From assembly GCA_020832905.1 (NCBI GenBank), contig JAJHRG010000001.1, positions 564,940 to 628,939 of the forward strand: 64,000 nucleotides of DNA, read 5' to 3'. Source of the DNA: Thermoproteota archaeon (lineage in GTDB: Archaea > Thermoproteota > Methanomethylicia > Methanomethylicales > Methanomethylicaceae). Below the pieces are notes generated by a model. The model did not search any database and was not told the DNA's origin. It saw only the letters and a program-made list of their open reading frames with translations. Position numbers and translations under genes: made by a program. Shown here piece after piece: positions 2,062-46,767 of this stretch; position 1 is the first letter of the stretch; the number at the start of each line of letters is the position of its first letter.

Positions 2062-3510
2062 ATGGGGCAAGAGCTTAAAATAGGAAGAGGCCCTCCTTTA
2101 GAACTAAGAGTTCTAAATGATCCAGGACCAGTATCTATAAGAAAAATTATAGGTCCAGGGCTTATTCTTGCAGCATTAGGTGTTGGAATGGGAGAAACAT
2201 TCATGTGGCCAAGACTTGTTATTGTCTTTGGTCCTGAAATTCGTTGGATTGCAACAGTTGGTTTAATAATACAAATATTTGTTACTGCAGAAATTGCTAG
2301 ATGGACATATTTTACTGGAGAAAGTATATTTGCAGCTGCAAGAAGAATTCATCCAATTATAATGTGGTACTTTTATATTTTAGCTATTTTTGTTTATATT
2401 TGGCCAGGTCATGTAGTTACAGGTAGTGGTGCATTAGCCTTACTATTAGGAGTGGATTGGATTCCTATTGCAATAGCAAGTATAATAGCAATAGCAGCAA
2501 TATTAATTTTAGCTCCATATCAAGTCTATAAAACTGTAAAAACAATTCTAGTAATTGCTATAGCAATAATGGTTGGAGTATCATTTATTGTAGCAGTATT
2601 AGTTGGTAGACCAGAACATTGGGCAGGAGCATTATATGGTACTGTTGCATTTGGATATTGGACAGATTTAATGAGCTCAAAAACATGGCTTCCATTAATA
2701 GTTGGTGCTATGGCATTTATTGGTCCTTCAGGTATGCAACAAATGTGGTATACATTATGGGCTAGAGAAGAAAATGCAGGAATGGGTGCTTATATGCCTA
2801 AAATAACTGGATTAATATTTGGAAAGGAAGAAACATGGAGAGAAGCTGGATTTTACTTTGATGTTAATTCAGATGAGGAAATTGCAAAATGGAAGCGTTG
2901 GAGAAGATTAAATATTTATGATGCTGTAATAACCTTTGGTCTTCTCACCTACTTTACAACATTATTCTTTACAGTATTAAGCATGAAGGCTGCTGAATTA
3001 AGTCCTGAAGCTCTTTCAGCAATAAAAGCAGGTAAGACATTAGTAGCAATAAAAGCAATTGCTTCTGCATTTACTTACATTTCTCCAGTATTATATCCAT
3101 TATGGTTTATAGTAATGTTCTTAGTAGGATGGAAGATGAGCTTTGGAATATTTGATGCTTTTGCAAGAGGACAAGCAGATATGACTTTCTATTTATTCAA
3201 AAAAGCACAAAAACTTGGAATGAGAAAATGGTATTATATATGGGTTGCAATAGTTACAATTTTTGGTATAATAACTACATTAGCAGGTGCTGCAAGAGGA
3301 CCTGTATTTCTACTTGATGTATTAGCATTTATGTCACCACTAATTATGGGAAGCTACTGCTTATTACTATTATATGTAAATAATAAAATGGTTCCAAAGA
3401 GAATAAGAATGTCTTGGATTTCAACAATAGTTTTAGCAGGAGGAGCCGCATTTTACTTAGTCTCATTATTCTACTGTACATTTGTTGTAGGTGCAGTACC
3501 AACAGGATAA
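2062..3510 (+). CDS. Polytopic membrane transporter (possibly Nramp/APC-like, uncertain)
   Basis: 482 aa, 11-12 TM segments. An N-terminal GPG-containing TM resembles Nramp TM1 but lacks the DPGN motif. Confidence 0.4.
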   Translation: MGQELKIGRGPPLELRVLNDPGPVSIRKIIGPGLILAALGVGMGETFMWPRLVIVFGPEIRWIATVGLIIQIFVTAEIARWTYFTGESIFAAARRIHPIIMWYFYILAIFVYIWPGHVVTGSGALALLLGVDWIPIAIASIIAIAAILILAPYQVYKTVKTILVIAIAIMVGVSFIVAVLVGRPEHWAGALYGTVAFGYWTDLMSSKTWLPLIVGAMAFIGPSGMQQMWYTLWAREENAGMGAYMPKITGLIFGKEETWREAGFYFDVNSDEEIAKWKRWRRLNIYDAVITFGLLTYFTTLFFTVLSMKAAELSPEALSAIKAGKTLVAIKAIASAFTYISPVLYPLWFIVMFLVGWKMSFGIFDAFARGQADMTFYLFKKAQKLGMRKWYYIWVAIVTIFGIITTLAGAARGPVFLLDVLAFMSPLIMGSYCLLLLYVNNKMVPKRIRMSWISTIVLAGGAAFYLVSLFYCTFVVGAVPTG

Positions 3511-4663: not shown

Positions 4664-6022
4664 TTGAAAATTTGGCAAGGAGTTGAAGTAGAATACTGTG
4701 TTCCATATATTAATAGAAAAAACTATGTTAATGAATTATTAGAATCACTAAGAAATTATAAAATGCCATTAAAAAATACATCTCCTTTTCTAATGAAAAA
4801 AGATGGAAAATATACACAATTTCTTATTAATGGTGGAAGAGCATATGGAGATATAAGCTTTACACCAGGTGTATATGATATTTTAGAAATAACAACTCCA
4901 GAATGTCCAAATCCATTTTATACTCTTGCATATGAAAAAGCAACAGAAGTTTATGCAAGAATAGCATCAGATGAATTTGAAAGAACATCAGGAATGAGAG
5001 TACATTGTTATAAAATAAGTGTAGTAAAATCTGAATATGAGTATACCACTAGAGGACTTCATGAAAGTTATTTAGTAGAAAGAAAAGCTTTTGAAAATAA
5101 AATTATGGAATTAATTCCTTATTTAGTTATAAGACAAATATTTACAGGAACTGGTGGATATTATTTTGGAAGATTTTTAATATCACCAAGACAAATGTTT
5201 ATAAAATCAGTAGTTGCTGAGAAAATATTTGGAAATTGGCCATTAATTGCAGAAAGAGATGAACCACATGCAGATCCTAAATACAAAAGATTGCAAATTA
5301 CAAATGGAGAAGGAGCAAGAACTGAATGGACAATATTTATGAGACAAGCAATAACATCATATATAATTAAAGCTATTGAACTTGGATTAATAAAAGAATT
5401 ACCAAGAATTAAAGATCCTATTGAAGCTGCAAAATTAATTGCTATATCTCCAGAAGGAGATTGGAGTTTAGAATTAGAAAATGGAAAAGAAATTAAAGCA
5501 TTAGAAATTCTTTCATATTATTTAGAAGGTATAGAAAAATTATTTATGAATGAAGAAATAGATGATTATGATAAATATGCATTAAAAGAATTTAAATTTG
5601 TATTAAATAAATTAGAAGAAGGAGATTTTGAATCATTAAAAAATAGAATAGAATGGATTGTAAAACTTGAAATTTTAGAAAATAATTTTAATAAATATTT
5701 TGAAGGAAATGGAAGCGAAGAAGAAAAAATTATTGCAAATAATCAATTTTGTGCAATAACAGATGGAACTTTTGAAAGAATACAAGAAGAAATGAACTTA
5801 ATTACATTATTAAAAGATGAAGATTTATCAAAAGCAGTTCTATTTCCACCAGAAAATTCTAGAGCATATGCAAGAATAAAAATTGCTCAAATTTTAAAAG
5901 ATAAATTAGATGATATTGGATGGTCTTATATTATTGTAAATAGTAATAGATATCATATGCTAGAATTAGATGGATGGAATGATGAAAAAATTTCAAAATT
6001 TTTAAATGAAATTATTTCTTAA
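4664..6022 (+). CDS. Pup-ligase/deamidase family (PafA/Dop-like) carboxylate-amine ligase homolog, paralog 1
   Basis: 452 aa. Blocks matching my recollection of PafA: GVEVEYCV (GIETEFGV), HESYLV (HENYLI), IPYLVIRQIFTGTGG (LPFLVTRQLICGAGK), RDEPHADPKYKRLQI (RDEPHADAEKYRRLHV), IKDPIEAAKLIAISPEGD (LDNPIRAIREVSHD), IEWIVK (DWVIK). Confidence 0.75.
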   Translation: MKIWQGVEVEYCVPYINRKNYVNELLESLRNYKMPLKNTSPFLMKKDGKYTQFLINGGRAYGDISFTPGVYDILEITTPECPNPFYTLAYEKATEVYARIASDEFERTSGMRVHCYKISVVKSEYEYTTRGLHESYLVERKAFENKIMELIPYLVIRQIFTGTGGYYFGRFLISPRQMFIKSVVAEKIFGNWPLIAERDEPHADPKYKRLQITNGEGARTEWTIFMRQAITSYIIKAIELGLIKELPRIKDPIEAAKLIAISPEGDWSLELENGKEIKALEILSYYLEGIEKLFMNEEIDDYDKYALKEFKFVLNKLEEGDFESLKNRIEWIVKLEILENNFNKYFEGNGSEEEKIIANNQFCAITDGTFERIQEEMNLITLLKDEDLSKAVLFPPENSRAYARIKIAQILKDKLDDIGWSYIIVNSNRYHMLELDGWNDEKISKFLNEIIS

Positions 6023-6093
6023 TTTATAACTCTATTTATAAGAAGTTTAAACATTTAAAAAAATTTTTATAATTTTAAGAATAATTTAATATT

Positions 6094-7665
6094 ATGAAAA
6101 TATTAAAAGAAATGGCAAGAGGTTGTGAATACGAATTTAGTGTAAATAGATATCCACCAATTCTTCCTGGTATTCAACTTTCAGATATTATAGGAAGAAC
6201 AATACTTGCATTAAAAAATTTAGGATTTATATCTAAAGTAATGTGGAGTGTAGAAGATGAAATTGGAAATTTAACTTATGAACGTGGTTTATTTGATTCT
6301 TGGTTATTTGCAGAAGGACCTTATGAAATTGCTTTTAATGGAATGAGAATATATGATGATGCTCAACATTTAGAATTTTCTACTCCAGTATTTAGAAGTC
6401 CAATTGATGCAGTAGTTTATGATAAAGTTGCTGAAAGATTAGCTTTTTTAGGAATAGAACAAATAAGAAAAACTCATGGAGAATTATATTGTTATAAAAC
6501 TAATAATAGTCTATTAAAAGGATCTTATGGTTATGAAGCAGTAGCATGGGGGACTCATGGATGTTATTGTGTTAGTAGAAGAATTTTTAATTTTGAAAAT
6601 TGGAAAAATGTAGAAAAAATTCTTATTCCCTTCATTATAAGTAGAATTCCATTAATTGGTAGTGGAGGAGTATTACCTATAAGAAATGAATTTTCATTTG
6701 AACCTCCAACAAGTTCAAGATTATGTGGTGATAAAATAATATATGTAATTTCACCAAGAGCAATTTATATAAAACAATTATCATCTATTGATACTACAGT
6801 AGATCGTGGATTTTTAAATCTAAGAGATGAACCACATGCTAATCCTAATAAGTATTGGAGATTACATGATATAAATTTTGAAGCAATAAGAAGTGATTTT
6901 CAAATATTTATTAGAGATGCATTAGAAGTTTTTACATTAAGAGCAATTGAAGAAGGATTATTACAAAATCCACCAATAATTAAAGATCCAATAGAAGCTA
7001 TAAGAAAAGTTTCAATGAATATAAATGAAATTGATCAATTTATTGAATTAGAAGGAAGTAATAAAGCAAGATTACTATCAGATATACTTTCATATTATAT
7101 TTCTGCAATTGAAAAACTAATAGAATTAAGAGGAGATAATGAAGACCATAAAGTTTTTAAGGTTATAGAAAGTGTAATTCAGAAACTAAAAGAAGGATTA
7201 TTTGAATATTTAAATGGAGCTATTGATTGGATTGCAAAAATGATGCTAATAGAAGAATATAATGCTAAAGATATGGATATGGCTATTATATGTAATCAAT
7301 ATGGATTATTAGATGAAAATACAGGTTTTTATGAAGGAAGAATAGAAAAAGGTGATACTTTATTTGATCCTGAATCTTCCTTAGCTTTTCTTGAAGAAGT
7401 ATTTCCTTTTGTAAAATCAATAAAAGAGAAAATAAAGTATGGTATGAATAATCCTCCTACAGATACTAGAGAATATTTAAGAACAAATATTTTAAAAGAA
7501 CATGAATCAGAAATAATAAAAATGAATTGGTGGAAAATTTACTTTAAAGGAGGTTTAATTACTTTAGATGAGCCATTAAGATATGGAAAAGAAGAAAGTG
7601 AAGAAATTTTAAAGATAAAAGACTTAAAAAAATTATCTGAAGTTATAAGAGGTGAAGCTAAATGA
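6094..7665 (+). CDS. Pup-ligase/deamidase family (PafA/Dop-like) homolog, paralog 2 (longer, Dop-like length)
   Basis: 523 aa. The same conserved blocks are present: CEYEFSV, IPFIISRIPLIGSGG, RDEPHANPNKYWRLHD, IKDPIEAIRKVS, IDWIAKMM. It is about 70 aa longer than paralog 1, as Dop is relative to PafA. Confidence 0.75.
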   Translation: MKILKEMARGCEYEFSVNRYPPILPGIQLSDIIGRTILALKNLGFISKVMWSVEDEIGNLTYERGLFDSWLFAEGPYEIAFNGMRIYDDAQHLEFSTPVFRSPIDAVVYDKVAERLAFLGIEQIRKTHGELYCYKTNNSLLKGSYGYEAVAWGTHGCYCVSRRIFNFENWKNVEKILIPFIISRIPLIGSGGVLPIRNEFSFEPPTSSRLCGDKIIYVISPRAIYIKQLSSIDTTVDRGFLNLRDEPHANPNKYWRLHDINFEAIRSDFQIFIRDALEVFTLRAIEEGLLQNPPIIKDPIEAIRKVSMNINEIDQFIELEGSNKARLLSDILSYYISAIEKLIELRGDNEDHKVFKVIESVIQKLKEGLFEYLNGAIDWIAKMMLIEEYNAKDMDMAIICNQYGLLDENTGFYEGRIEKGDTLFDPESSLAFLEEVFPFVKSIKEKIKYGMNNPPTDTREYLRTNILKEHESEIIKMNWWKIYFKGGLITLDEPLRYGKEESEEILKIKDLKKLSEVIRGEAK

Positions 7666-7757
7666 GTGATATTTTACCATCTTTTAAGAAAAAAGAAAAA
7701 GTAGATAAAAAGTTAAAAAAAGAACATGCTGAACTTATTGCTCCACCTGGTGAATAA
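7662..7757 (+). CDS. Small ORF (31 aa, MSDILPSFKKKEKVDKKLKKEHAELIAPPGE) ending in Gly-Glu; candidate Pup/UBact-like modifier
   Basis: ATG overlaps the stop of the upstream Dop-like gene (ATGA). SD GGTGA lies 6 nt upstream. The C-terminal GE resembles mature Pup (GGE). Not in the ORF track because it is below the length cutoff. Confidence 0.4.
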   Translation: MSDILPSFKKKEKVDKKLKKEHAELIAPPGE

Positions 7758-7762
7758 TAAAC

Positions 7763-7791
7763 TTTTTTAATTATTTTTTATAATTAAAAAA
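7763..7791 (+). terminator. Inverted repeat TTTTTTAATT/AATTAAAAAA plus T-rich tract downstream of the small ORF
   Basis: Perfect 10-nt inverted repeat with a 9-nt loop, followed by oligo-T. A 16-nt palindrome TATAAACATGTTTATA sits at 7828-7843. Confidence 0.3.
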
Positions 7792-7893: not shown

Positions 7894-8193
7894 TTGGGGG
7901 TTCTGGTGCCAGAAATAATACTTCGTATAAAAACATCTGATATTAAAGGCAATATAGGTCTTCTAAATCCACAAGATTTATCAAAACTTGGTGCAAAGGA
8001 AGGAGATGAAATAGAATTGTATTCAACTTCAAGAGCATGGACTATAAAGACAAAATCTGATTCTTCAGTACCTATAGGAGAAGTAAGAGTAAGCACAGAC
8101 GTTCTGAGAAGACTTGATGTAGAAGATGGAAGTGAAGTAAGAGCTTATTGGGCTCCTCCAGTAGTAGAAGAAAAATATGAACCCCCACCATGA
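7894..8193 (+). CDS. Stand-alone Cdc48/VAT N-terminal-like (double-psi beta-barrel) domain protein
   Basis: IILRI...G.IGL...LSKLGAKEGDEIEL...IGEVRVSTDVLRRLDVEDGSEVRA follows the VAT-Nn pattern (ILRV...SRVRLD...LG..GD.VEIE...G.IRID...G.S.GD.V.V). The likely start is GTG at 7906, after a GGGGG run. Only 9 nt separate it from the OFOR gene. Confidence 0.45.
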   Translation: MGVLVPEIILRIKTSDIKGNIGLLNPQDLSKLGAKEGDEIELYSTSRAWTIKTKSDSSVPIGEVRVSTDVLRRLDVEDGSEVRAYWAPPVVEEKYEPPP

Positions 8194-8202
8194 GGTGAGA
8201 TT

Positions 8203-9264
8203 TTGGCTATATTTGCAGTTGAATTTGATGGAAGAGGTGTAACACAAACTGCATTAATGAGAGCTGCTAGTGAAATCATTTGTACTGCTGCAGATAAGGA
8301 TGGATTTCCATCAATTGGATATGAAAGATACGATGATGCTCCTGATAGAGTTGGTGTACCAATTAAAGGATTTTCAGTAATATCAAGAACAGCTCCCGCT
8401 TCATATGAAAAAGATTTAGAAGATGTTGCAGTTGATGTTGAAAAACTTAGTCCTCCAACACCAGATTACTCATATTATCAAGTATGCTATGATGAATTAG
8501 CACCTGAAGCAATGCTATATGAGCCAAGAGCTGTAGATGCTGTACTAGTACTAGATGATACTTTAGTAAAAGGAGAAGAACCATGGGCTTATATAGGAGT
8601 ACAACCAATACATGAGAAATTAAAAGATGGAGGAGCAATAATAGTAAATAGTAAAAGAGATCCAGAATATCTTTTAGAATTTATTCATCCAACAACTAAA
8701 AGATATAAATTAGCAGTTATTGATGCAGATTCTATGGATAAAATAATTATATTACCATTAATAGGTGCTATGCTAAAAGTAGCTCCTGGTATTGTTTCAT
8801 ATAGATCAGTTATTGCTACTGTAAAGGAAAGATATAAAGCTGAAGGAATAAAGAAAGCACAAGTAATAAAAGATGCTTATAATAAAGTAAGATGGATAGA
8901 AGTTCCACCTGCTAAAGAACCAATACAAATAAAGAGAAAGAGAAAATTCCTTGAAGAATTTCCAAAATGGCATGAAATGCCTATAGGTCTTGTAGTTCCT
9001 GCACCTCCAGTAAATGGTCCAAATCCACACTTCAAAACTGATACATTTAGGACATATAGACCTGTAACAGATACAAGTAAGTGTAATAAAGATGGATTAT
9101 GTTGGTTATATTGTCCTGATTCTGCTAGAAGTCCAGATCCAGAGACATTTTTTGCTGTAAATCTTGAATATTGTAAAGGTTGTGGTATTTGTGCTGAAGT
9201 TTGTCCTGTTAAAGCAATTAAAATGGTTAATGAATTAGATTTTAGAGGTGAGAAATTATGGTAA
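8203..9264 (+). CDS. 2-oxoacid:ferredoxin oxidoreductase gamma-delta fusion subunit (POR/VOR family)
   Basis: N-terminal gamma-like region (FDGRGVTQTA). C-terminal delta-type 2x[4Fe-4S] region (CNKDGLCWLYCP, CKGCGICAEVCP). Confidence 0.8.
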   Translation: MAIFAVEFDGRGVTQTALMRAASEIICTAADKDGFPSIGYERYDDAPDRVGVPIKGFSVISRTAPASYEKDLEDVAVDVEKLSPPTPDYSYYQVCYDELAPEAMLYEPRAVDAVLVLDDTLVKGEEPWAYIGVQPIHEKLKDGGAIIVNSKRDPEYLLEFIHPTTKRYKLAVIDADSMDKIIILPLIGAMLKVAPGIVSYRSVIATVKERYKAEGIKKAQVIKDAYNKVRWIEVPPAKEPIQIKRKRKFLEEFPKWHEMPIGLVVPAPPVNGPNPHFKTDTFRTYRPVTDTSKCNKDGLCWLYCPDSARSPDPETFFAVNLEYCKGCGICAEVCPVKAIKMVNELDFRGEKLW

Positions 9265-10448
9265 GAGTTATAACAACTGGAACTGTTGCAATTGCAACTG
9301 CTGTTAAACATGCAGATGTTGATGTAATATCTGCATATCCAATTAGACCATATACAGGAGTAATGAATGAATTAGCAAGAATGATTGCTGATGGAGAATT
9401 AGATGCAGAGTTCATTGTATGTGATTCAGAACATACACAATTTGAAATTGCAAAACATGCTGCAGCATGTGGTGCAAGAGTATTTACTGGTAGTGCAGGT
9501 ATTGGATGGGCATATGCTCATGAAGCTATTGTTGTTACACCAACAGATAGAGTTCCAGTAGTTGCAATGGTTGGAAATAGAGCATTAGATGATCCAGGAA
9601 ACTTTGGTGTAGAACATACAGATGTTTTAGTTGCAAGAGATTTAGGATGGATGATGTGCTGGCCTGAAAATCCACAAGAAGCTTATGATTTAACATTAAT
9701 GGGTTATAAGATTGCTGAAAATCCTAATGTGCTATTACCATATATAGTAAATTGTGATGGAAACTTTATTACTCATGTAAGATTTCCAGTAGATCTTCCT
9801 GATGAAGAACTTGCAAGAGAATTCTTACCACCAACTCCACCACCAAGACCAAATATACTACATCCAGATAAACCAATATCTATAGCTCCACATGTAGACT
9901 ATTACTGGGGAACTGAAATAAGAAGACAAATGGATCAAGCAATGAAGAATGCTATTGAAGTAACAAAAAGAGTTCATGAAGAATTTAATAAGATATTTGG
10001 TAGAGGAGGACCTCCATTTATTGAAGAAATTAATACAAAAGATGCTGATGTTGCTATGATAGGAGTAGGCGGAATGACAATGGTAGCAAGAGCAGCAGTA
10101 AGAGAATTAAGACAAAAGGGAATAAATATAGGTTTTGTAAAGCTTAGAAGATTTAGACCATTTGCTACTGAAGAAATAAGAGAAGCTTTAAGGAAATTTA
10201 AAGTAGTTGCTGTATTAGATAATGACTTCTCATTTGGATCTGCACATTGTGGAGGAATATTATTCCAGGAAATTCGATCTGCTTTATATGATCTATCTGA
10301 AAGACCAATTGTTGTTAATTACTTAATTGGACTTGGTGGAAGAGAAATTACTGTTGATGCAATGAAGAGAATTGGTAAGGAGATATATGAAATATCAAAG
10401 ACAAAAGAAGTTAAACATATAGTTAAATGGGTTGATGTTAGGGAGTGA
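9258..10448 (+). CDS. 2-oxoacid:ferredoxin oxidoreductase alpha subunit
   Basis: Typical PorA/VorA N-terminus (GTVAIATAVKHADVDVISAYPIRP). 396 aa. Overlaps its neighbours. Confidence 0.85.
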   Translation: MVRVITTGTVAIATAVKHADVDVISAYPIRPYTGVMNELARMIADGELDAEFIVCDSEHTQFEIAKHAAACGARVFTGSAGIGWAYAHEAIVVTPTDRVPVVAMVGNRALDDPGNFGVEHTDVLVARDLGWMMCWPENPQEAYDLTLMGYKIAENPNVLLPYIVNCDGNFITHVRFPVDLPDEELAREFLPPTPPPRPNILHPDKPISIAPHVDYYWGTEIRRQMDQAMKNAIEVTKRVHEEFNKIFGRGGPPFIEEINTKDADVAMIGVGGMTMVARAAVRELRQKGINIGFVKLRRFRPFATEEIREALRKFKVVAVLDNDFSFGSAHCGGILFQEIRSALYDLSERPIVVNYLIGLGGREITVDAMKRIGKEIYEISKTKEVKHIVKWVDVRE

Positions 10449-11382
10449 TAATATGAGTTGGGAGAAGATAGAAATAAGAACACTTAAAGATGTTCCTAAA
10501 GAGGAATATTATGTAGCAGGACATAGAACATGTCAAGGATGTGGTCCTGCTCTTGCATGTAGATTAATAGCAAAAGCTGCAGGTCCAAGAACTGTATGTA
10601 TTGTTGCTACTGGATGTATGTATGTAGCAAATAGTAGTTATAATACAACTCCATGGGCAATACCATGGATGCATGCACAATTAGGAGGAATAGGCTCAGC
10701 AGTAGCTGGTGCAGCAGCTGCATTTAAAGCTATGATGAGAAAAGGAAAAATAAAGAAAGAAGAAATTCATGTTTTAGGAATTGCAGGAGATGGTGGTGCT
10801 GCAGATATAGGTCTTTCAGCTATATCTGGTGCTATGCTATCAGGTGGTGATCACTTAATAATTACATATGATAATGAATCTTATGCAAATACTGGAATTC
10901 AAGCTTCAAGTTTAACTCCATGGGGTGCTTGGACAACATTTACTCCTCCAGGAAAAATGTTAAGACTTGGAAATGTAAGAGTTAAAAAAGATTTACCAAG
11001 AATGATTGCTGCAGGACATCCTAATGTACGCTATGTAGCAACTGCAAGTATATCATTTCCATTTGATTTAATGACAAAAGTAAGAAAAGGATTAGCTGTA
11101 AAAGGTCCAGCTTTTATACAAATTCATACACCATGTCCTAAGGGATGGAAATTCCCACCAGAATTAACCATAAGAATAGGTAGATTAGCTGTAGAAACAG
11201 GAATGTGGACATTATATGAAGTTGAAGATGGACAATTTAGATTAACTTTCAAGCCTCCAAAGAGAAAACCAGTATCAGAATACTTAAAACTTCAAGGAAG
11301 ATTTGCTCACTTAAGAGAACCAGATATTAGATATATACAAGAACAAGTAGATGCTGCTTGTAAGCAATTAGGTATTGACTAA
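10432..11382 (+). CDS. 2-oxoacid:ferredoxin oxidoreductase beta subunit (TPP-binding)
   Basis: CQGCG motif and the TPP-binding block GDGGAADIG...YDNESYANTG. Confidence 0.85.
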   Translation: MMLGSDNMSWEKIEIRTLKDVPKEEYYVAGHRTCQGCGPALACRLIAKAAGPRTVCIVATGCMYVANSSYNTTPWAIPWMHAQLGGIGSAVAGAAAAFKAMMRKGKIKKEEIHVLGIAGDGGAADIGLSAISGAMLSGGDHLIITYDNESYANTGIQASSLTPWGAWTTFTPPGKMLRLGNVRVKKDLPRMIAAGHPNVRYVATASISFPFDLMTKVRKGLAVKGPAFIQIHTPCPKGWKFPPELTIRIGRLAVETGMWTLYEVEDGQFRLTFKPPKRKPVSEYLKLQGRFAHLREPDIRYIQEQVDAACKQLGID

Positions 11383-13895: not shown

Positions 13896-15353
13896 GTGAT
13901 AATAATGATAAAAGAAGAATATAATGAAATTATCTCTGGAATTGTAGGAATATTGATAATTTCAGGTATTATAATGTTAATTCCAATTATTCCCTTAGTG
14001 GTATATAGTGAGTATGCTCAATTGCCTTTCTTTTTATTTTCCTCCATCATCTTATTAATAATAGGAGGATATTTCTATAGAAAATACCCCCTTCCTGAAG
14101 ATATTACAATGAAATCTGCAATTGTTATTGCTAGTATTGCTTGGCTTTTAATATCACTAATTGGAACAATACCATACTTAAGTATAGGTATGAATATTAT
14201 TGATGGATTTTTTGAATCAATGAGTGGATTTACTACAACTGGTATGACATTAATTAGTGTTTTGGAAATATGTCCAAGATCTATATTATTTTGGAGGAGC
14301 TTAAGTGAATGGATTGGAGGAATTGGAATAATCTTTCTTTTTACAATATTATTAAAAGGAAGTATAGGTACATGGAAATTATATAGAATTGAAGGAAGAG
14401 AAAAATTTACAATAAGTGTAAAAGAAAGTATAAGAAATATAATGATTATATATACAACTTTAACTATAGTTTGTACAATTTTATTATATTTAAGTGGATT
14501 AGATGTTTTTGATTCAATAAATCATGCAATGACAACCATTTCTACAGGAGGATTTTCTACAAAAACAGATAGTATAACTAACTTCAGTATCTTGACAAAA
14601 ATAATAATAATTATGTTTATGATAATTGGTGCAATTGATTTTGCATTAATTAATGAAATTATAAAACTTAAGATAAAAAAAGTAATAAGCGATCCTGAAT
14701 TCAAAGCCTTTATATTTATAATCATAATTAGTATTTTATTAGTTTACATATTGAATTCAAAGGAAATGAGCTTTAGCATAAATGAATTATTTAATACAAT
14801 ATCAATAGTAACTACAACTGGCTATACAAGTGGTGATATACTTTTATGGCCTAATTCCACTAAGGTTTTACTATTAATACTTATGACAATAGGTGGATGT
14901 GCAAATTCAACTGCAGGAGGAATAAAAGTATGGAAATTATTAATACTATTCAAACTTTTAAGAAGAGAATTAAAAAGACTATTGTTACCTCCTTCTATAA
15001 TAATGCCTATAAAGATAGGAGATAAAACATTTGATGATGAATATTTAATTAAAATATGTACTTTCTTCTTTAGCTATATAGTACTAATATTCATAATCTT
15101 CTTATTACTAAGTATTAATATTCCTGATACATTTGGAGCGTTATCATTAGCCATTTCTTCTATTAATAATATAGGACCTGCTTACTATCCTATTGATAAG
15201 CTTGATTTATTTTCAAAAATAATATTAATAATTAGTATGTGGATGGGTAGACTTGAATTATTTCCAGTAATGGCTTTTATTTTTGAATTCATTCCAGAAA
15301 CTTTTAAAAATATATTATCAAGAAGATTTAGAAAGGAGTACGAGTATACTTAA
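13896..15353 (+). CDS. trkH: TrkH/KtrB-family K+ transporter membrane subunit
   Basis: SGFTTTG and T(T)GYTSG selectivity-filter-like repeats. 485 aa, polytopic. Confidence 0.8.
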   Translation: MIIMIKEEYNEIISGIVGILIISGIIMLIPIIPLVVYSEYAQLPFFLFSSIILLIIGGYFYRKYPLPEDITMKSAIVIASIAWLLISLIGTIPYLSIGMNIIDGFFESMSGFTTTGMTLISVLEICPRSILFWRSLSEWIGGIGIIFLFTILLKGSIGTWKLYRIEGREKFTISVKESIRNIMIIYTTLTIVCTILLYLSGLDVFDSINHAMTTISTGGFSTKTDSITNFSILTKIIIIMFMIIGAIDFALINEIIKLKIKKVISDPEFKAFIFIIIISILLVYILNSKEMSFSINELFNTISIVTTTGYTSGDILLWPNSTKVLLLILMTIGGCANSTAGGIKVWKLLILFKLLRRELKRLLLPPSIIMPIKIGDKTFDDEYLIKICTFFFSYIVLIFIIFLLLSINIPDTFGALSLAISSINNIGPAYYPIDKLDLFSKIILIISMWMGRLELFPVMAFIFEFIPETFKNILSRRFRKEYEYT

Positions 15354-16590
15354 AAATTTCACAATATTTTTCATTTAATTTTAAATTTCCTACTTGTATG
15401 AGAGAAATATCATCACTTACTGGTGTTATTATTTTCATTTTTCTTTCTTCATAATTTATTTCTGATATTATTCCAAGTCCTAAGAATTTTCCATTATCTT
15501 TATAAAGACCAACAATTATTCCTTTTTCAGAACCTTTCTTTATAGCAATTAATTCATCACAAATTTTTTCTTTATTTGTTATATTTGGTTCATCTTCAGT
15601 TACTAAAAATAAGAATTTTCCATTAGTTTCTCCATAAAGTATTTTTAAGCATAATTCTTTACTTAGTTTTTCTAATAATTCTTTTGATAATGGATTACCA
15701 TAAGTATAATAAGAACATATAATTTTTGTTGATTTTAAATCTATAATTCTTTCCTTACTATTAGCAAAATATTTACTATATGCATTTTCACGTTTTTCTT
15801 TTCTTTCTTCTCTACTTCTTATTCTTGATGCTGATGAAGATGTTATTCTTATTACATTTTCAAAATTTCTTATTATATGTTCTAATTCATTTCCTTTTTG
15901 AATTGCAATAATAAAATCAGGAGAAATTATTTGAATTAATGAGCATTTATATTCTCTTGCATATATACCATTAACCCATCCACATGTATTTATAATGATT
16001 ATATCAGCATTATTATTTAAAGCATTATCAACAAGCTTTTTAGCACTTACTATCATTTTCATTGGAGCATCAGATGGTGTAGTTGTTCCAATAAATATTG
16101 CATCAGTTAATGGAATTTTATCCATAGAAATAATTGTATTATTTAAAAAGCCATAACCAATAGTTGTTGGTAATGATATTTCAGCTTGTCCTGGATCTAA
16201 ATCAATAACAGCAACTTTCATTCCATACTGAAATGCTATATTTGCTAAATATACTGAAAAAGTTGTTTTACCACTATCTGTATCTCCTATTACCATAACC
16301 TTTATTGGAGGTTTACTTTTAATTATTTTTTCAACAGCATCTTTCCAGCATAAAGGTATAGGATTAGGGATTTCTTTTATACATGCATTACTTCCAAGAT
16401 TAATTTCAATAAGTGAATCTTCTAGTACTTCTACTGGTATAGATTTTCCTTTTGGTATTATTATTTCCTCTCCTAATGTAACAGATTTTCCTAAAGCTAA
16501 AATTTTTCCATTACGTAAGCATAAATATGCAGGACCATATACTACAAAAGAGGACATTTTTGTTAAGTTCATTTGCAACAAATAATACAC
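15328..16590 (-). CDS. Clp1/Grc3-family polynucleotide 5'-hydroxyl kinase (archaeal Clp1-like)
   Basis: P-loop GDTDSGKTT followed by a DLDPGQ motif. 420 aa. Confidence 0.6.
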   Translation of the reverse strand: MYYLLQMNLTKMSSFVVYGPAYLCLRNGKILALGKSVTLGEEIIIPKGKSIPVEVLEDSLIEINLGSNACIKEIPNPIPLCWKDAVEKIIKSKPPIKVMVIGDTDSGKTTFSVYLANIAFQYGMKVAVIDLDPGQAEISLPTTIGYGFLNNTIISMDKIPLTDAIFIGTTTPSDAPMKMIVSAKKLVDNALNNNADIIIINTCGWVNGIYAREYKCSLIQIISPDFIIAIQKGNELEHIIRNFENVIRITSSSASRIRSREERKEKRENAYSKYFANSKERIIDLKSTKIICSYYTYGNPLSKELLEKLSKELCLKILYGETNGKFLFLVTEDEPNITNKEKICDELIAIKKGSEKGIIVGLYKDNGKFLGLGIISEINYEERKMKIITPVSDDISLIQVGNLKLNEKYCEIFKYTRTPF

Positions 16591-27768: not shown

Positions 27769-28578
27769 ATGAAAATCATTAACTTATTATTACTAAGTCT
27801 ATTATTTTCACTTATACTAGCTTATCCTATATTAGCTCAATCTAATAATATGTACATAAAACTTCAAAAATTTACAATTTATGATATTAATCGTGATTTT
27901 ATATACATAGAATATTTAGGAGAAGAAGATATTATAGTTTTAATTGTAAAATCAGATTCTAATTTAGATATAGTAAAACAAAGTATCGGTATTGGTTATG
28001 GTAGTATTACAATACATATTAAAAATACTTCATATAAATTAGGATCATGTATAATTGCTTTATTCTCTACAAAATCCTTTTTACTAAATATATCTATGAG
28101 AATGGGAGAAATACCACTACAAACTCAAACAATTTCTGTACCTGCTAATATTACATTACAAATGGAAATACCAATAGAATATGGTGGTTATCAACAGCCA
28201 ATATATACTATTACTAATGTTTCATATACTCCATATTTTCCAATATGGACTCTTTTAACATATGCTATAATATTACCAATGTTTATTATAACAGGATATT
28301 TAGATAAAAACTCATTGAAAATTATGAGAAAACGTTGGACACAATTAGATACATTTGCCATTATAATAAGATATGCTTTTTATGCTTTTTTAGTAATATT
28401 CATTATAGTAACTATTGAAATTGTAGTAGAATACATATTATCTAGACTTAATATTTATGCAATAAGTTTACATATAGGAGATTGGTTTATCTCATGTATT
28501 TTATTTTCTATATTTACTATAATATATGGAATAGGAAAATGGAGGGGAATATTTGAAAATGTTGATGGAGAAGAGTGA
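27769..28578 (+). CDS. Hypothetical membrane protein with N-terminal signal peptide
   Basis: Signal-like N-terminus plus C-terminal TM helices. Confidence 0.35.
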   Translation: MKIINLLLLSLLFSLILAYPILAQSNNMYIKLQKFTIYDINRDFIYIEYLGEEDIIVLIVKSDSNLDIVKQSIGIGYGSITIHIKNTSYKLGSCIIALFSTKSFLLNISMRMGEIPLQTQTISVPANITLQMEIPIEYGGYQQPIYTITNVSYTPYFPIWTLLTYAIILPMFIITGYLDKNSLKIMRKRWTQLDTFAIIIRYAFYAFLVIFIIVTIEIVVEYILSRLNIYAISLHIGDWFISCILFSIFTIIYGIGKWRGIFENVDGEE

Positions 28579-31267
28579 AGATTATTGGTGGTGGATTAAA
28601 AGACCTATTTTAAGAAAATTATTATGTTTACCATTATATTTAGCTAATAGAGAATATAGAAGATGGAGAAATGCAAGATTAAATCCAAGAATTATTAAGA
28701 AAAAATTAGCAGAAATAGATAAAAAATTTCCAAAAAAGAAAGAAGATCTTATTGGAAGAGATAAAGAATATCAATTGATAATGAGTGCAATTGGTTATCA
28801 TGTTATAAGAGATCCTTCACTATTAAATATATTTAAGGGAGCACCTCCACCAAAATTCTTTATACTTAAGGGTACAACAGGTACTGGAAAAACATTACTT
28901 GCAGAAGTTTGTATAAGAGATGCTATAGAATATGGAATAAGTAAGGGAGTAAATGTACAACCAATAGTTGTTATGGGAAGTGATATATTTAATCCATTAT
29001 ATGGACAATCAGTTATTAATTTATCATATATATTTAGAAAAGCAAAGGATACTCCAAGTATAATATTCTTTGATGAATTTCAAAGCATAGGTATACGTGT
29101 AGAAAGACCAATGTATGGTGCAGATAGAGAAGATATGAGAGTACAAGATGCATTTATAGAGCATATTAATAAAATACTAAATACACCTCAAAGAACTATT
29201 GTTATTGCTGCTACAAATAAATTTGAAAGTATTAGAGAAGATATTAGAAGAAGAGCATATGTAATTGATTTAGATCAGAATATTACAAGAGAAATGCTTC
29301 TTGCAGTTCTTAAAGCTGAGTTAGAAAAATATGGATGGACACATTTATCACCTAATGAAGTTTTAACAGTATTAGAAAAAGCTGTAAGTACATATAGACA
29401 AACACAACTTACACCTTTTGATATAATTGATGCATGTAATAGAGTTAGAAGTAAAAAAATAGAACCTTTAAGAGAAAAGTTTTTCAAAAAGATGATATTT
29501 AGTAAAAAAACTACTTCTGATGATTTGAAGTTATTAGTAACAATAGATGATTTTAAGTTAGTTGCAAGAGAGTTAAGAGGATATACAGAACAAGAAAAAA
29601 GCGATGAAGTTATGGCTTCAGTATTAAGAATAAAACCAGCTGTTAGCTATAAAGATATTGGAGGACTTTTTGGAATAAAGGAAAAACTATTTAAAATAAT
29701 ATCTCTAAGTCTTTCTCCTGAATTAGCAAGTAAGTTAAACTGGGTTCCACCAAAAGGCTTTTTACTATGGGGAGAACCTGGTTGTGGAAAAACATATCTT
29801 TCAAAAGCAATTGCAAAAGAAAATAATGCAACATTCTTTTATGTTCCTGCAGCTCAACTTTTAATTAATGCAAAATGGGTTGGAGAACCTGAGAAAAATG
29901 TAAGAGATTTATTTGCACTTGCAAGAAGACATGCACCAAGTATAATATTTTTTGATGAATTTGATGTTATTGCTGGAAAAAGAAGAGGAGATCCTGTAAG
30001 TGATAGATTAACTGCACAAATATTAACAGAACTAGATGGTTTACAGCCATTAGAGAATGTAATAGTAATAGCAGCAACAAATAGATTAGATGCAATTGAT
30101 GAAGCAATAATTAATAGATTTGAACCATATGTAATAGAAATTCCCTTACCAAGAAATGATGCAGAACGTTTAGATATTATAAAGGTTCATTTAAGACATT
30201 ATATTGCTCATCTTCATCCTGAAGTTACTCCTGAGAAAGTATTAAATATACTAAAAAAACATAAAGTAGTTTCTCCAAGAGTAGTTAGTGAAATTATAAG
30301 AGAAGCAAATAGATTAAGATCACAAGAAGTTAATGCAGCAATAGAAATTACTAGAAATAAAGATAGATTAGCAGAAATTTACAATCTTTATAGAGAAGAA
30401 ATTGAAAGATTAAAAGAAGTTTTAGGTGCTTTAGATTATGAAGTACTAAAAGAAGTTAAACCAGAAACCTATAAAATAAGACTTTATCATTTTGAAAAAG
30501 CTGCTGAAGAACTTGAAAGTGAAATTGAAAAAGAAATAATGGATGCTCAGGAAAGTATGATTTATGAGAAACTTAATCCTGGTGTAGCATTAGGTCTTGC
30601 TACAGATCCTCAAGGTAGAAAAGGAGTAATACTAATAGTTGAATGTGCATCAAAACCAAATGGTAGTGGTAAAATTACAGTAACAGGAGCAGCAAAAACT
30701 GCAGTTATAGGTCCTGGTACAACAGTTGAAGATGTAAGTGTTATTGAAAGTGCTACTAATGTCATAGAGTTTATTAAGAGATATATCTATGAAAAACTAG
30801 GAATAGATATTTCAAATTATGATTTTACATTTCAAGTTATAAGTCCACTTGAGGGAGCACCAGGAATGGGAGTAAGTGGTCCAAGTCTTGGTCTTGCTTT
30901 TAGTGTAGCTGCTATATCTGAACTTGCAGGAATAGAAGGAAGAAAAGATGTAGTTATGAGTGGAAAAGGTGATATAAAGGGAAATGTTGGTCCTGTAGGA
31001 GGAATGAGTTGGCGTGGATCAGGAAAAATTTTAGCTGCAATTCAAACAAAAAGAATAAAGATTAAAAAATTTATAATTCCAAAGTGGAATTATGAGCATT
31101 CTCCTGATGAAATAAATATACTTAAAGAAGAAGGTATTGAAGTTATACCTGTTGAAAAGCAAGTAGAAGCATGGCTTAATGTATTCTCAATAACTGAAGA
31201 AGAATTACTAAATAGAATTGCTAAAAATATTGAATTAAAGTCTAATATTAAAGCAATATTAAGGTAA
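28559..31267 (+). CDS. Tandem-AAA+ ATPase fused to a C-terminal Lon (S16) protease domain
   Basis: Walker A/B pair 1: GTTGTGKT / IIFFDEFQ. Walker A/B pair 2: GEPGCGKT / IIFFDEFD, with a classic-AAA IAATNR sensor. The C-terminus GPSLGLAF...DVVMSGKGDIKGNVGPVGGM...GKILAA aligns with the Lon catalytic Ser/Lys region. Confidence 0.75.
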   Translation: MLMEKSEDYWWWIKRPILRKLLCLPLYLANREYRRWRNARLNPRIIKKKLAEIDKKFPKKKEDLIGRDKEYQLIMSAIGYHVIRDPSLLNIFKGAPPPKFFILKGTTGTGKTLLAEVCIRDAIEYGISKGVNVQPIVVMGSDIFNPLYGQSVINLSYIFRKAKDTPSIIFFDEFQSIGIRVERPMYGADREDMRVQDAFIEHINKILNTPQRTIVIAATNKFESIREDIRRRAYVIDLDQNITREMLLAVLKAELEKYGWTHLSPNEVLTVLEKAVSTYRQTQLTPFDIIDACNRVRSKKIEPLREKFFKKMIFSKKTTSDDLKLLVTIDDFKLVARELRGYTEQEKSDEVMASVLRIKPAVSYKDIGGLFGIKEKLFKIISLSLSPELASKLNWVPPKGFLLWGEPGCGKTYLSKAIAKENNATFFYVPAAQLLINAKWVGEPEKNVRDLFALARRHAPSIIFFDEFDVIAGKRRGDPVSDRLTAQILTELDGLQPLENVIVIAATNRLDAIDEAIINRFEPYVIEIPLPRNDAERLDIIKVHLRHYIAHLHPEVTPEKVLNILKKHKVVSPRVVSEIIREANRLRSQEVNAAIEITRNKDRLAEIYNLYREEIERLKEVLGALDYEVLKEVKPETYKIRLYHFEKAAEELESEIEKEIMDAQESMIYEKLNPGVALGLATDPQGRKGVILIVECASKPNGSGKITVTGAAKTAVIGPGTTVEDVSVIESATNVIEFIKRYIYEKLGIDISNYDFTFQVISPLEGAPGMGVSGPSLGLAFSVAAISELAGIEGRKDVVMSGKGDIKGNVGPVGGMSWRGSGKILAAIQTKRIKIKKFIIPKWNYEHSPDEINILKEEGIEVIPVEKQVEAWLNVFSITEEELLNRIAKNIELKSNIKAILR

Positions 31268-41913: not shown

Positions 41914-42939
41914 TCAAGTCTGTATTATTTGTTCTATGCTTAGGTTTAAAACTATCTCAGCTATATCACTTGAATAATCGATAATCCTTCTCAGATTTTC
42001 TAAAATAAGTGCTAATTCTGCTGATTGTTTTTTATTTCTTTTGATTATATCTCTAACTATTTTCATTCCTTTTGTTATTGTTTCTCTAATTTTTTGTATA
42101 TTTTCTTCTGCTAATTGATAATCTCTCTTAAAGAAGGCTTCTACTGAAGTTTCAAAAACTGATTTTGAAAAAGAACTTATTTTCATTATTTCATCTAATA
42201 TTGATTTATCAAGTTTAGAATTTAAAGTAGTTGTAATTTCAGCTATTCTAACAGAATGATCAGCTATTCTTTCTACGAATTTTACCAACACTCTATAAGC
42301 TAAACATTCTCTTGGATTAGAAAGTCCAATTTCTTGCATTATCTTACTATTTTGAATAGCAACCTTTAATTGACGAATTATATAAAAGCTTAAACGATCA
42401 ACTTCATCATCTAATTCTATTACATTATTAGCAAGATCTTTATCTAAATTTATTAATGCTTTTATAGCATTTTCATGAAGTGAAGAAGTTATTAAACACA
42501 TACGCCTTAAAGTACTACTAATTGAAAGTTCAGTAGAGTCTACTAAGACCTTTAAAATCATTTCATTGGGCATATCAGATATTATTTCCACTCCTATAAG
42601 CTTTCTTTTAGTTAATCCCCTTATGGTATTTTTATGTGAAGGAGTAATTTGTCCATCAATAGCCATAATCCTAATAGAATCATAACCATTAAGGTATACT
42701 GAAATTATTGCTCTTATTATCTTTTCCAAAGGATAGTCCTTTGATATTTTAATAATTGCCTCTCTAAGATTTACCTTTGGCTTAATTAAATCCTTAGGAG
42801 TTATAATAAGTGATGAGCCTTCTTGTGTTATTACAAGTTGATCACCAACTTTAAGACCCATATCTTTAATCCATTTTTTTGGTAGAGAAATTATAAATGA
42901 TGATCTACCAGTAAGTTGGATTTTTCTAATTTCTTCCAT
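41914..42939 (-). CDS. Phosphate uptake regulator, archaeal AbrB/SpoVT-PhoU fusion type
   Basis: N-terminal swapped-hairpin domain (GRSSFIISLPKKWIKDMGLKVGD) plus two PhoU repeats (ADHSVRIAE, DYSSDIAE). Divergent from the pst operon. Confidence 0.75.
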   Translation of the reverse strand: MEEIRKIQLTGRSSFIISLPKKWIKDMGLKVGDQLVITQEGSSLIITPKDLIKPKVNLREAIIKISKDYPLEKIIRAIISVYLNGYDSIRIMAIDGQITPSHKNTIRGLTKRKLIGVEIISDMPNEMILKVLVDSTELSISSTLRRMCLITSSLHENAIKALINLDKDLANNVIELDDEVDRLSFYIIRQLKVAIQNSKIMQEIGLSNPRECLAYRVLVKFVERIADHSVRIAEITTTLNSKLDKSILDEIMKISSFSKSVFETSVEAFFKRDYQLAEENIQKIRETITKGMKIVRDIIKRNKKQSAELALILENLRRIIDYSSDIAEIVLNLSIEQIIQT

Positions 42940-44161: not shown

Positions 44162-44177
44162 AACTGAGATGAGAATC

Positions 44178-46756: not shown

Positions 46757-46767
46757 GGTGATAAATT

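Follow-up and report, generated by a model that had tools for sequence, protein, structure and literature searches.

A stretch of 64,000 nucleotides from a Thermoproteota archaeon (contig JAJHRG010000001.1 of assembly GCA_020832905.1, positions 564,940 to 628,939; hereafter the window) encodes a three-gene module that probably carries out conjugation of the Pup type with tags of a new family, belonging to a Methanomethylicia-like archaeon. Two tandem open reading frames (ORFs) encode enzymes of the PafA/Dop family, and a third, of only 31 residues, encodes a peptide ending in Gly-Glu that we propose as the conjugated tag. Our analysis establishes the family membership, fold, and active-site conservation of the enzymes, the linkage of the three genes, and the conservation and Glu/Gln terminus of the tag. 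A Pup-type module had been proposed in a first-pass annotation made from the DNA letters, and that reading is supported by the tandem PF03136 enzymes in an archaeal genome and by a conserved small protein that ends in G[EQ], from which we infer the function. The features of the module are as follows, with positions counted from the first letter of the window.

4664..6022, plus strand: ORF1, 452 amino acids (aa), TTG start; G1 paralogue of the PafA/Dop family (Pup_ligase, PF03136).
6094..7665, plus strand: ORF2, 523 aa; PafA/Dop-family paralogue G2.
7650..7655, plus strand: AGGTGA as read from the sequence, a putative Shine-Dalgarno-like element placed 6 nt upstream of the ATG that starts the mini-ORF.
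7662..7757, plus strand: mini-ORF, 31 aa, MSDILPSFKKKEKVDKKLKKEHAELIAPPGE; proposed conjugated tag.
7763..7779, plus strand: two T6 runs, as read from the sequence, just past the mini-ORF double stop TAATAA.

All three ORFs lie exactly where the first-pass annotation had placed them, and the motif blocks that it listed are likewise present in the translations of ORF1 and ORF2: GVEVEYCV and CEYEFSV, HESYLV, IKDPIEA.., IEWIVK and IDWIAK, IPYLVIRQIFTGTGG and IPFIISRIPLIGSGG, and RDEPHADPKYKRLQ and RDEPHANPNKYWRLH. A detail absent from that account is the HGCY of ORF2 at the site of the PafA/Dop HENY motif. The start codon of the mini-ORF overlaps the stop codon of ORF2 (ATGA, 7662-7665), an arrangement that suggests translational coupling of the two, and the T6 runs likely act as an archaeal oligo-T transcription stop that closes the three-gene unit. 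A divergently transcribed NAD-dependent epimerase gene begins the other flank, 49 nt from ORF1.

Both enzymes belong to the PafA/Dop family, as had been claimed. ORF1 matches the Pfam Pup_ligase profile (PF03136) with 203 bits (E = 1.1e-59) over profile positions 47-440 and ORF2 with 184 bits (E = 5.7e-54) over positions 72-439, strong and nearly full-length matches for a profile of 441 positions and a cutoff of 25. In sequence searches of the Protein Data Bank, ORF1 finds Dop as its best match (E = 7e-30) with PafA next, and phmmer likewise ranks Dop (E = 1e-29) ahead of PafA (6e-12) for ORF2. AlphaFold2 yields models of high predicted local distance difference test score (pLDDT 92 for ORF1 and 88 for ORF2), each with the glutamine-synthetase-like beta-sheet cradle and C-terminal helical domain of the family. 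Foldseek pairs the ORF1 model with Dop 4b0r (E = 1e-28, template modelling (TM) score 0.83) and the ORF2 model with Dop 7oyh (E = 2e-26), followed by PafA (2e-21) and, much further off, GCS2 (6e-5). Over both models, the Dop and PafA structures are matched with E values of 1e-28 to 1e-15 and TM scores of 0.63-0.85, compared with 1e-7 to 1e-4 and 0.40-0.59 for GCS2/YbdK; gamma-glutamylcysteine ligase and glutamine synthetase are likewise remote, with TM ≤0.6 and E values no better than 1e-7. The two models therefore place with Dop and PafA and not in the small-molecule GCS2 clade, a placement on which the earlier proposal had hinged.

Within this family, the archaeal proteins form deep lineages of their own. 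Scored against the NCBIfam equivalogs, ORF1 and ORF2 reach 157 and 176 bits for Dop (TIGR03688, cutoff 492) and 145 and 121 bits for PafA (TIGR03686, cutoff 551), far below what orthology with the actinobacterial enzymes would call for. We built a neighbor-joining tree (433 trimmed columns, 100 bootstraps) from the proteins of the archaeal-type loci, 18 Dop and 18 PafA sequences from actinobacterial loci, and several database proteins; the tree relies on simple distance methods and covers neither UBact-associated nor planctomycete homologs. The actinobacterial sequences came from a scan of genome contigs with the G2 alignment, which was swamped by actinobacterial Dop by way of the RDEPHA pattern and supplied 79 actinobacterial loci for our Dop, PafA, and Pup sets; L002, described below, was the sole close locus in that scan, which returned no archaeal genomes. 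The sequences fall into four clean clades, namely Dop, PafA, G1 (ORF1-type), and G2 (ORF2-type). In 99-100% of bootstraps, Dop pairs with PafA to the exclusion of G1 and G2, and the groupings G2 with Dop and G1 with PafA appear in 0 of 100. Mean identity is 26% between G1 and G2 and 24-27% between either of them and Dop or PafA, compared with 41% between Dop and PafA. By these sequence comparisons, G1 and G2 are not orthologs of PafA and Dop, and the sister grouping of Dop and PafA together with the low G1-G2 identity indicates that the archaeal pair arose from a separate, deeper split. The first-pass suggestion that the lengths of 452 and 523 aa mirror the PafA versus Dop size difference therefore fails, the archaeal paralogs being as far from each other as from either bacterial enzyme. 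It also follows that a ligase ORF1 and a depupylase ORF2 are roles that we infer rather than carry over from annotation.

The active sites were compared in the numbering of Acidothermus Dop, in which the catalytic Asp94 corresponds to Asp64 of Corynebacterium glutamicum PafA, with residue roles and PafA/Dop-discriminating positions taken from PMC8599861 and PMC7947786. The GhExE motif, Asn87, Tyr92, Glu99, His155, Arg180, Arg205, and Arg239 are invariant across both the G1 and G2 groups, and both window enzymes have GxExE and the catalytic Asp. Conservation is most complete in G2, where 19 active-site and signature positions are invariant among 44 sequences (43 or 41 where a copy is truncated). 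These include Glu8, Glu10, Asn87, Arg90, Tyr92, Asp94, His97, and Glu99 as well as His155, Arg180, Arg205, Thr217, Arg227, His231, Arg239, and His241, with Asp found in 43 of the 43 residues in the Asp94 column. At the discriminating positions, around the catalytic Asp and in the alpha-loop, G2 has Dop-type residues: Ser101 (Ala in PafA), Thr217, and Trp453 (Val in PafA) are invariant, Asp216 (Glu in Dop, Ala in PafA) occurs in 42 of 44, and the one-residue insertion that follows Asp94 in PafA is lacking. Members of the G1 group, ORF1 included, have neither the Dop-type Glu216 nor Thr217. Nor does ORF1 show the PafA-specific pattern of a Val insertion and Gly-Ser after the Asp with an alpha-helical H-x-W-E-G-x-S-S-A segment: its insertion at that place is of another kind, and it is without HxWEG.

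Dop is further marked by the Dop-loop, which precedes strand beta2, spans 40-65 residues, and contains a conserved Trp47 (PMC8599861). The ORF2 insert VMWSVEDEIGNLTYERG resembles a short Dop-loop of ≈25 residues and has a Trp aligned to Dop Trp47; it is disordered in the AlphaFold2 model, of which residues 59-76 are the only low-confidence stretch. Such an insert is present in 17 of the 44 G2 sequences, ORF2 among them, and is absent from the Bathyarchaeia-type G2 proteins and from ORF1. Another insert of ORF2 follows the GSGG strand. The G1 proteins, for their part, retain the metal and nucleotide ligands throughout (Glu8, Glu10, Asn87, Tyr92, Glu99, His155, Glu156, Arg180, Arg205, and Arg239 in 35 of 35), and the window's own ORF1 also keeps Arg90, Asp94, Arg227, and His231, with His241 replaced by Gln. 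A clade-specific insertion of seven residues directly follows its catalytic Asp (YGD-ISFTPGV-YDILE). Net charge tells nothing of complementarity to a basic tag, all of the enzymes being acidic (-17 for G1, -23 for G2, and -20 for Dop).

The third gene is conserved with the pair. A small ORF lies next to the enzyme genes, usually on the same strand and directly after G2, in ≈40 independent loci that belong to Methanomethylicia, to Bathyarchaeia, or to metagenome contigs without assignment. L085/L086 and L091 are two lineages in which it lies directly before G1 instead, so the linkage survives rearrangement. The encoded peptides share the consensus ..(D/E)xxLFPSFKKRxLKRxKxxIKKEHxEVVAPPG[EQ]-COOH. 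A profile based on an alignment headed by a 40-aa member retrieved 113 clusters from 5.8 billion proteins, all of 27-63 aa, without a Pfam domain, and bearing "hypothetical protein" as their sole name; a HMMER search of 1.84 billion cluster representatives retrieved 8, of 27-47 aa, in which the match always reaches the last residue. Among 116 distinct tags (modal length 38 aa), that last residue is Gln in 60 and Glu in 56 and is never anything else. Gly(-2) and His(-10) are invariant, Pro(-4) is found in 113 and Pro(-3) in 114, and each tag contains between 4 and 16 lysines. The window tag ends in PPGE, and two near-identical tags from L116 and L123 differ solely in having Glu or Gln. The window tag has no Pfam match, and neither it nor the 26 family members compared have an NCBIfam match.

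Comparison of three Methanomethylicia loci over 27 codons gives 12 synonymous versus 6 nonsynonymous differences, 12 versus 5, and 15 versus 3. Judged from these codons, the tag gene is under purifying selection, and the mini-ORF is, on its conservation, a real gene and a member of a new family of small basic proteins. The coupled mini-ORF noticed in the first pass is thus a conserved, G[EQ]-ended gene overlapping the ORF2 stop, which is what a Pup-type module needs.

The module resides in archaeal DNA. The window encodes a Clp1 kinase domain of archaeal/eukaryotic type (CLP1_P), PolB1-binding protein 2 (PBP2), aldehyde:ferredoxin oxidoreductase (AFOR), a geranylgeranyl reductase, and DUF2099 ("conserved in archaea"), and the source contig (Logan SRR10916987) also carries an archaeal-type FBP aldolase/phosphatase (FBPase_3). 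The closest homologs of ORF1 and ORF2 are found in metagenome-assembled genomes (MAGs) of Candidatus Methanomethylicaceae at 67-76% identity and in unlabeled metagenome contigs at up to 95%; remoter ones come from MAGs of several independent projects labeled Methanomethylicota, Bathyarchaeota/Bathyarchaeia, and Methanosarcinales. Gene order is shared with GCA_026414165.1 (FBPase, TauE, IlvD, CitMHS, two genes of unknown function, the epimerase, G1, G2, 2-oxoacid:ferredoxin oxidoreductase (PFOR), and NUDIX) and in part with a Bathyarchaeia contig. These marker genes, together with the synteny with several independent archaeal MAGs, exclude bacterial contamination of the window, a possibility that the first-pass annotation had named as refuting its claim. 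Methanogens of the class Methanomethylicia have recently been cultured, for example Methanosuratincola petrocarbonis (PMC12244365).

The chemical steps, proposed by homology with the bacterial enzymes, would be as follows. The 31-residue peptide would be the tag, and its extended ...VVAPPGE tail would enter the beta-sheet cradle of a PF03136 enzyme. There, ATP-Mg would be held by GhExE, Glu99, His155, and the arginines, and the terminal Glu would be phosphorylated on its gamma-carboxylate; the epsilon-amino group of a lysine on the target protein would attack the activated tag to give an isopeptide bond. Tags with a Gln end, as in the Gly-Gln relatives, would first be deamidated to Glu, as Dop does for mycobacterial Pup, and the Dop-like G2 could also hydrolyze the isopeptide bond with a bound phosphate, again as Dop does. 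The N-terminal LFPSFKKR motif and the basic stretch would stay free as a recognition element for a receptor.

Of the two enzymes, G2 is most likely the core, fully equipped Dop-like member, a predicted deamidase and de-tagging enzyme that may also ligate. In the lineages whose tags end in Gln, G1 lacks both Asp94 and Arg90, so the deamidase there can only be G2, which argues for this assignment. Whether G1 is the ligase is evenly balanced in our estimation: its sequence would fit a ligase for which His suffices as general base, or else a partly degenerate accessory partner.

Tagged proteins would most likely be handed over to the 20S proteasome by way of an AAA unfoldase, a fate suggested by a Methanosarcinales pair flanked by a gene for a PAN-like ATPase; a purely regulatory role is also conceivable. 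The loci L140, L142, and L143 share the order Clp1 (minus strand), AAA ATPase of 538 aa, G1 of 531 aa, G2 of 521 aa, and an ORF of 89 aa.

L142:6299-11482 (MAG contig): Methanosarcinales-type operon with AAA ATPase, G1-like, G2-like, and 89-aa proteins.

The ATPase contains just one classic AAA module, nearest the VAT/Cdc48 D2 domain, and its C-terminus, ...EETGMYY, fits the GxYx docking-tail pattern, the element that Mpa uses to bind the 20S core (PMC6466877). In the 89-aa protein, an acidic N-terminus is combined with Lys-rich repeats and the end ...ILPYEIYATSGE (YATSGE); it is Pup-sized and Gly-Glu-ended, and its long N-terminal extension could be a threading end for the adjacent ATPase. 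As a parallel to the mpa-dop-pup arrangement, this operon is the only direct hint that the system may feed an unfoldase and proteasome. For the organism of the window, proteasomal targeting as the main outcome is a tentative proposal, somewhat more doubtful than not.

Several observations weigh against a Pup-type system of this design, and the whole of the evidence is computational, drawn from MAGs and metagenome contigs. Some of them concern the tag. A profile of the tags aligned by hhalign with one of 16 Pup sequences from actinobacterial loci gives a probability of 0.06%, no detectable similarity; the tags are basic, with a net charge of +2 to +7 (≈31% Lys+Arg) compared with -12 for Pup; and the window tag is half the size of Pup. 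The earlier view of the mini-ORF as a Pup-type peptide therefore stands as regards its G[EQ] end and its adjacency to the enzymes, but the peptide is not Pup itself. Others concern the surroundings. No proteasome, PAN, Cdc48, or AAA gene lies beside the module in the window or in the Methanomethylicia- and Bathyarchaeia-type loci; no coiled-coil/OB AAA ATPase or 20S linkage was found within the 64-kb window or at most loci, and no 20S genes (prcA/prcB) were seen adjoining any locus. In the Methanosarcinales ATPase, the N-terminal 200 residues find the coiled-coil/OB region of PAN as their best match, but weakly (2wg5/2wg6, E = 0.04; 6he5). Because all archaea are reported to encode proteasome components (PMC12288473), linkage to the module is not required.

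The remaining points concern the enzymes. The Glu of HENY, invariant in Dop and PafA, is replaced by Ser, Gly, or Ala in G2 and is Gly in ORF2 (HGCY), which otherwise keeps all of the canonical catalytic residues that we checked. The literature that we consulted on Dop and PafA active sites states no role for this Glu. We considered whether its loss might render G2 inactive and rejected the idea as unsupported, every other catalytic residue being invariant. In G1, the catalytic Asp94 is missing from 17 of 35 sequences (it is kept in 18, with His in 16) and Arg227 from 10 (kept in 25). Arg90 is retained in 18 of 35, the others having mostly Leu or Val, His231 in 25, and His241 in 29. At least two loci depart from the usual pairing: L132 (65-2007) has G2 and a tag without G1, with an amidohydrolase gene abutting G2, and L092 (1-3322) has G2 and a tag with only a 99-aa remnant of G1, an epimerase gene being inserted before G2. 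Together, the losses of Asp and Arg227 and the missing or remnant G1 make a clean split into ligase and depupylase doubtful.

These same losses, with those of Arg90 and His231 in various clades, are what lend weight to an alternative in which the chemistry is unchanged but G2 alone deamidates, ligates, and removes the tag, and G1 is a noncatalytic or regulatory partner such as an adaptor or tag chaperone. The retention of the canonical catalytic residues in 44 of 44 G2 sequences would suit such an arrangement. The single-copy planctomycete homolog would likewise have to perform all steps, and PafA itself can ligate Pup and also remove it (PMC5358908). Even so, nearly all loci with sufficient sequence have G1 immediately upstream of G2, its metal and nucleotide ligands are intact in all 35 sequences, and its model is confident (pLDDT 92). 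ORF1 of the window moreover keeps Asp94, Arg90, and Arg227, and a His that replaces Asp94 might yet serve as a general base. We regard the G2-alone arrangement as rather unlikely, and it is in any case compatible with a Pup-type system as proposed here.

Less probable by some way is that the peptide is a substrate or scaffold in its own right, either a LysW-like carrier loaded with a small-molecule amine at the gamma-carboxylate of its last Glu or a product akin to ribosomally synthesized and post-translationally modified peptides, its Glu being joined to its own lysines or to polyamines. The chemistry would be the same, namely ATP-dependent amide formation at the side chain of a C-terminal Glu, and a tiny peptide with 4-16 lysines at loci that mostly lack proteasome linkage could serve such an end; archaea also offer LysW/LysX as a precedent. 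What makes this improbable is that the lineages share no conserved genes for biosynthesis, export, or immunity in the surroundings of the module and that both enzymes group with Dop and PafA rather than with small-molecule ligases. The alternation of Gln and Glu, the Dop-like deamidase, the 89-aa variant, and the PAN-like unfoldase also fit a Pup-like tag better. Finally, the descent of the PafA family from GCS2-like ligases (PMC2588565), the equivalog scores far under cutoff, and the label Tectomicrobia bacterium on the close locus L002 might be taken to mean small-molecule gamma-glutamyl ligases or amidases beside an unrelated or spurious mini-ORF, or else bacterial contamination or a decaying, horizontally acquired relic, a very improbable and largely refuted reading given the invariant G-[EQ] end of 116 mini-ORF sequences that move with the enzyme pair, the distance of GCS2 structures (E = 1e-4 to 1e-7 compared with 1e-26 to 1e-28), the archaeal markers and synteny with several archaeal MAGs, and the strong constraint on G2.

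A Pup-type conjugation system therefore remains the reading that we prefer, and several features of its surroundings deserve mention in their own right. Recurrent neighbors are lineage-specific: PFOR subunits on either strand in about 8-10 loci, a peptide-deformylase homolog after the tag in 10, and an Amidohydro_3 protein upstream in 10. In the window, the PFOR set occupies 8203-11382 on the plus strand as a fused gamma+delta subunit (353 aa) followed by alpha and beta; oxidoreductase neighbors also occur in L082, L083/L084, L093, L097, L099, L100, L102, L122, and L141, and may be preferred partners or mere lineage synteny. The deformylase homolog (Pfam E = 5e-35; L087:6661-7212, minus strand) directly follows the tag in the same orientation and recurs in L088, L089, L092, L103, L110, L113, L114, L121, and L137, on contigs that appear to be of Bathyarchaeia type. 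To our knowledge, archaea do not formylate the initiator Met, which makes a peptide deformylase odd there; the protein could be an amidase for processing or removing the tag, or a sign that the contigs are bacterial. A gene for a Clp1-type kinase (CLP1_P) lies 0.2-8 kb from the module in three distant lineages, Methanomethylicia, Bathyarchaeia, and Methanosarcinales (window 15328-16590, L141:6203-7489, and L142:4887-6086, all on the minus strand), a recurrence that might be explained by chance, by synteny that has been retained, or by a functional link.

Two loci stand apart from the others. L002 (JACPSX010000109.1, labeled Candidatus Tectomicrobia bacterium) and L085 (GCA_041642995.1) have a G1-G2 pair with 37-44% identity to the archaeal proteins on contigs of higher GC content (56%) that encode ABC exporters and periplasmic binding proteins; the L085 tag lies upstream and is Gln-ended. 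Either the system has a branch in bacteria or these contigs are archaeal DNA that was misbinned. A minus-strand ORF of L002 ending in ...IASPGQ lies within the sequence coding for G1, and we dismissed it as a chance occurrence; the L002 tag was probably upstream and lost at the contig end.

Rfam and tRNA scans of the window gave no matches. Elsewhere in it, ORFs of 156, 482, and ≈95-99 aa without a Pfam match (1488-1958, 2062-3510, and 7894-8193, all on the plus strand) keep their positions around the module in the related Methanomethylicia loci L082, L104, L122, L135, L099, and L102. At 28553-31267 on the plus strand, ≈21 kb from the module, a protein of 904 aa combines two P-loop/AAA regions (101-249 and 404-525) with a fused Lon C-terminal proteolytic domain (670-869), an unusual double-ATPase Lon-like architecture. 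A gene at 41914-42939 on the minus strand fuses a MazE/AbrB-type antitoxin-like DNA-binding domain to two PhoU domains; it adjoins a phosphate ABC transporter operon (43037-47406) and is probably a regulator of the phosphate regulon.

In line with the first-pass remark that no archaeal system had been described, a full-text literature search found no paper on archaeal PafA/Dop or pupylation, and published surveys list Dop and PafA homologs only in bacterial phyla (PMC7947786, PMC2588565). In archaeal MAGs, annotation pipelines already give these proteins the name "proteasome accessory factor PafA2 family protein", so their presence was visible in databases; what is new is the domain of life, the unannotated tag family, and the deep enzyme lineages. 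If the proposal is correct, Archaea possess a second, chemically unrelated route of protein tagging, and a third tag family joins Pup and UBact, only ≈31-40 residues long and basic. Being short and basic, the tag could suit as a minimal ligatable tag for proximity labeling (PUP-IT). The enzymes would also provide deep outgroups for the divergence of the Dop hydrolase and the PafA ligase, including natural Asp-to-His variants at the catalytic position. The origin of pupylation-type tagging would be reopened as well. The literature that we read takes pupylation to have been invented by bacteria, and in essence by Actinobacteria: the full pathway has been argued to have emerged in Actinobacteria (Hecht et al. 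2020, PMC7947786), and the actinobacterial proteasome is regarded as horizontally acquired (reviewed in PMC6466877). A bolder scenario, which we think unlikely at present, is that tagging by PafA/Dop chemistry is old and vertically maintained in at least three archaeal lineages (Methanomethylicia, Bathyarchaeia, and Methanosarcinales), with its own tag family, two enzyme lineages that branch off outside the actinobacterial clade of PafA and Dop, and a PAN-like unfoldase leading to the proteasome, and that pupylation-type tagging is shared with or derived from Archaea, possibly having traveled with the proteasome.

A known system with similar bond chemistry in Archaea is LysW/LysX, in which a small protein ends in a Glu whose gamma-carboxylate receives an amide bond in an ATP-dependent reaction. 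The enzyme LysX is of the ATP-grasp type, and LysW is an acidic zinc-ribbon protein encoded in lysine/arginine biosynthesis operons; the archaeal module shares none of these features. The known route of small-protein tagging in Archaea is of the SAMP/E1-like kind. Like the proposed system, the SAMP/Urm1-type pathway with its E1-like UbaA involves covalent tagging of lysines by a small protein, with links to the proteasome. SAMP proteins, however, have a beta-grasp fold and a C-terminal Gly-Gly and proceed through adenylation and a thioester, a chemistry and folds unrelated to those proposed here, in which the terminal Glu side chain of a disordered peptide would be phosphorylated by an enzyme of glutamine-synthetase fold.

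UBact, from Nitrospirae, Verrucomicrobia, and other Gram-negatives, is a small protein distinct from Pup that also ends in G[EQ] and, outside Actinobacteria, is encoded with PafA/Dop homologs. It is longer than the archaeal tag, ends in ...RQR[TS]G[EQ], and is clustered with proteasome genes. The Pup/PafA pairs of Plesiocystis and Rhodopirellula and the single-copy planctomycete homologs (Iyer et al. 2008; Hecht et al. 2020) resemble the archaeal module in having no adjacent proteasome genes. The planctomycete-type single-copy homolog is also, like the archaeal enzymes, possibly ancestral-like with a partly kept Dop-loop. The Plesiocystis and Rhodopirellula ligases have an insertion of four transmembrane segments, and their genes show linkage to one for a membrane protein (PMC2588565); the alignments and AlphaFold models of the archaeal enzymes show no such insertion, and the tags differ.

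Pup itself was defined by a G[EQ] C-terminus and adjacency to PafA (Iyer et al. 2008, PMC2588565), and the archaeal module fits this operational definition, with a G[EQ]-ended small protein encoded beside PafA homologs. By homology, the tag is distinct, with no detectable similarity to Pup and its conserved core LDEID..VLE.NAE.FV..[FY]VQKGG[EQ] and with 27-63 aa (mode 38) compared with 50-90 aa for Pup, a length that the Methanosarcinales variant does reach at 89 aa. Compared with actinobacterial pupylation (Pup, PafA, Dop, Mpa/ARC, and 20S), the archaeal module differs in its host, in enzymes that form with PafA/Dop three deep lineages (G1, G2, and PafA/Dop) at 24-27% identity, in a tag that ends in ...VVAPPG[EQ] rather than ...FVQKGG[EQ], in having no prcA/prcB in the neighborhood, and in a G1 that is often degenerate at the catalytic Asp. 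It shares with that system the enzyme family and fold, the tandem paralogs, a small protein encoded beside them with both Gly-Glu and Gly-Gln ends among close relatives, and the Dop-type residues of G2 with, in part of the family, the Dop-loop Trp. Beside the Methanosarcinales pair stands an AAA ATPase of coiled-coil/OB type, weakly similar to PAN and with a GxYx tail, much as mpa stands beside its partners in Actinobacteria.

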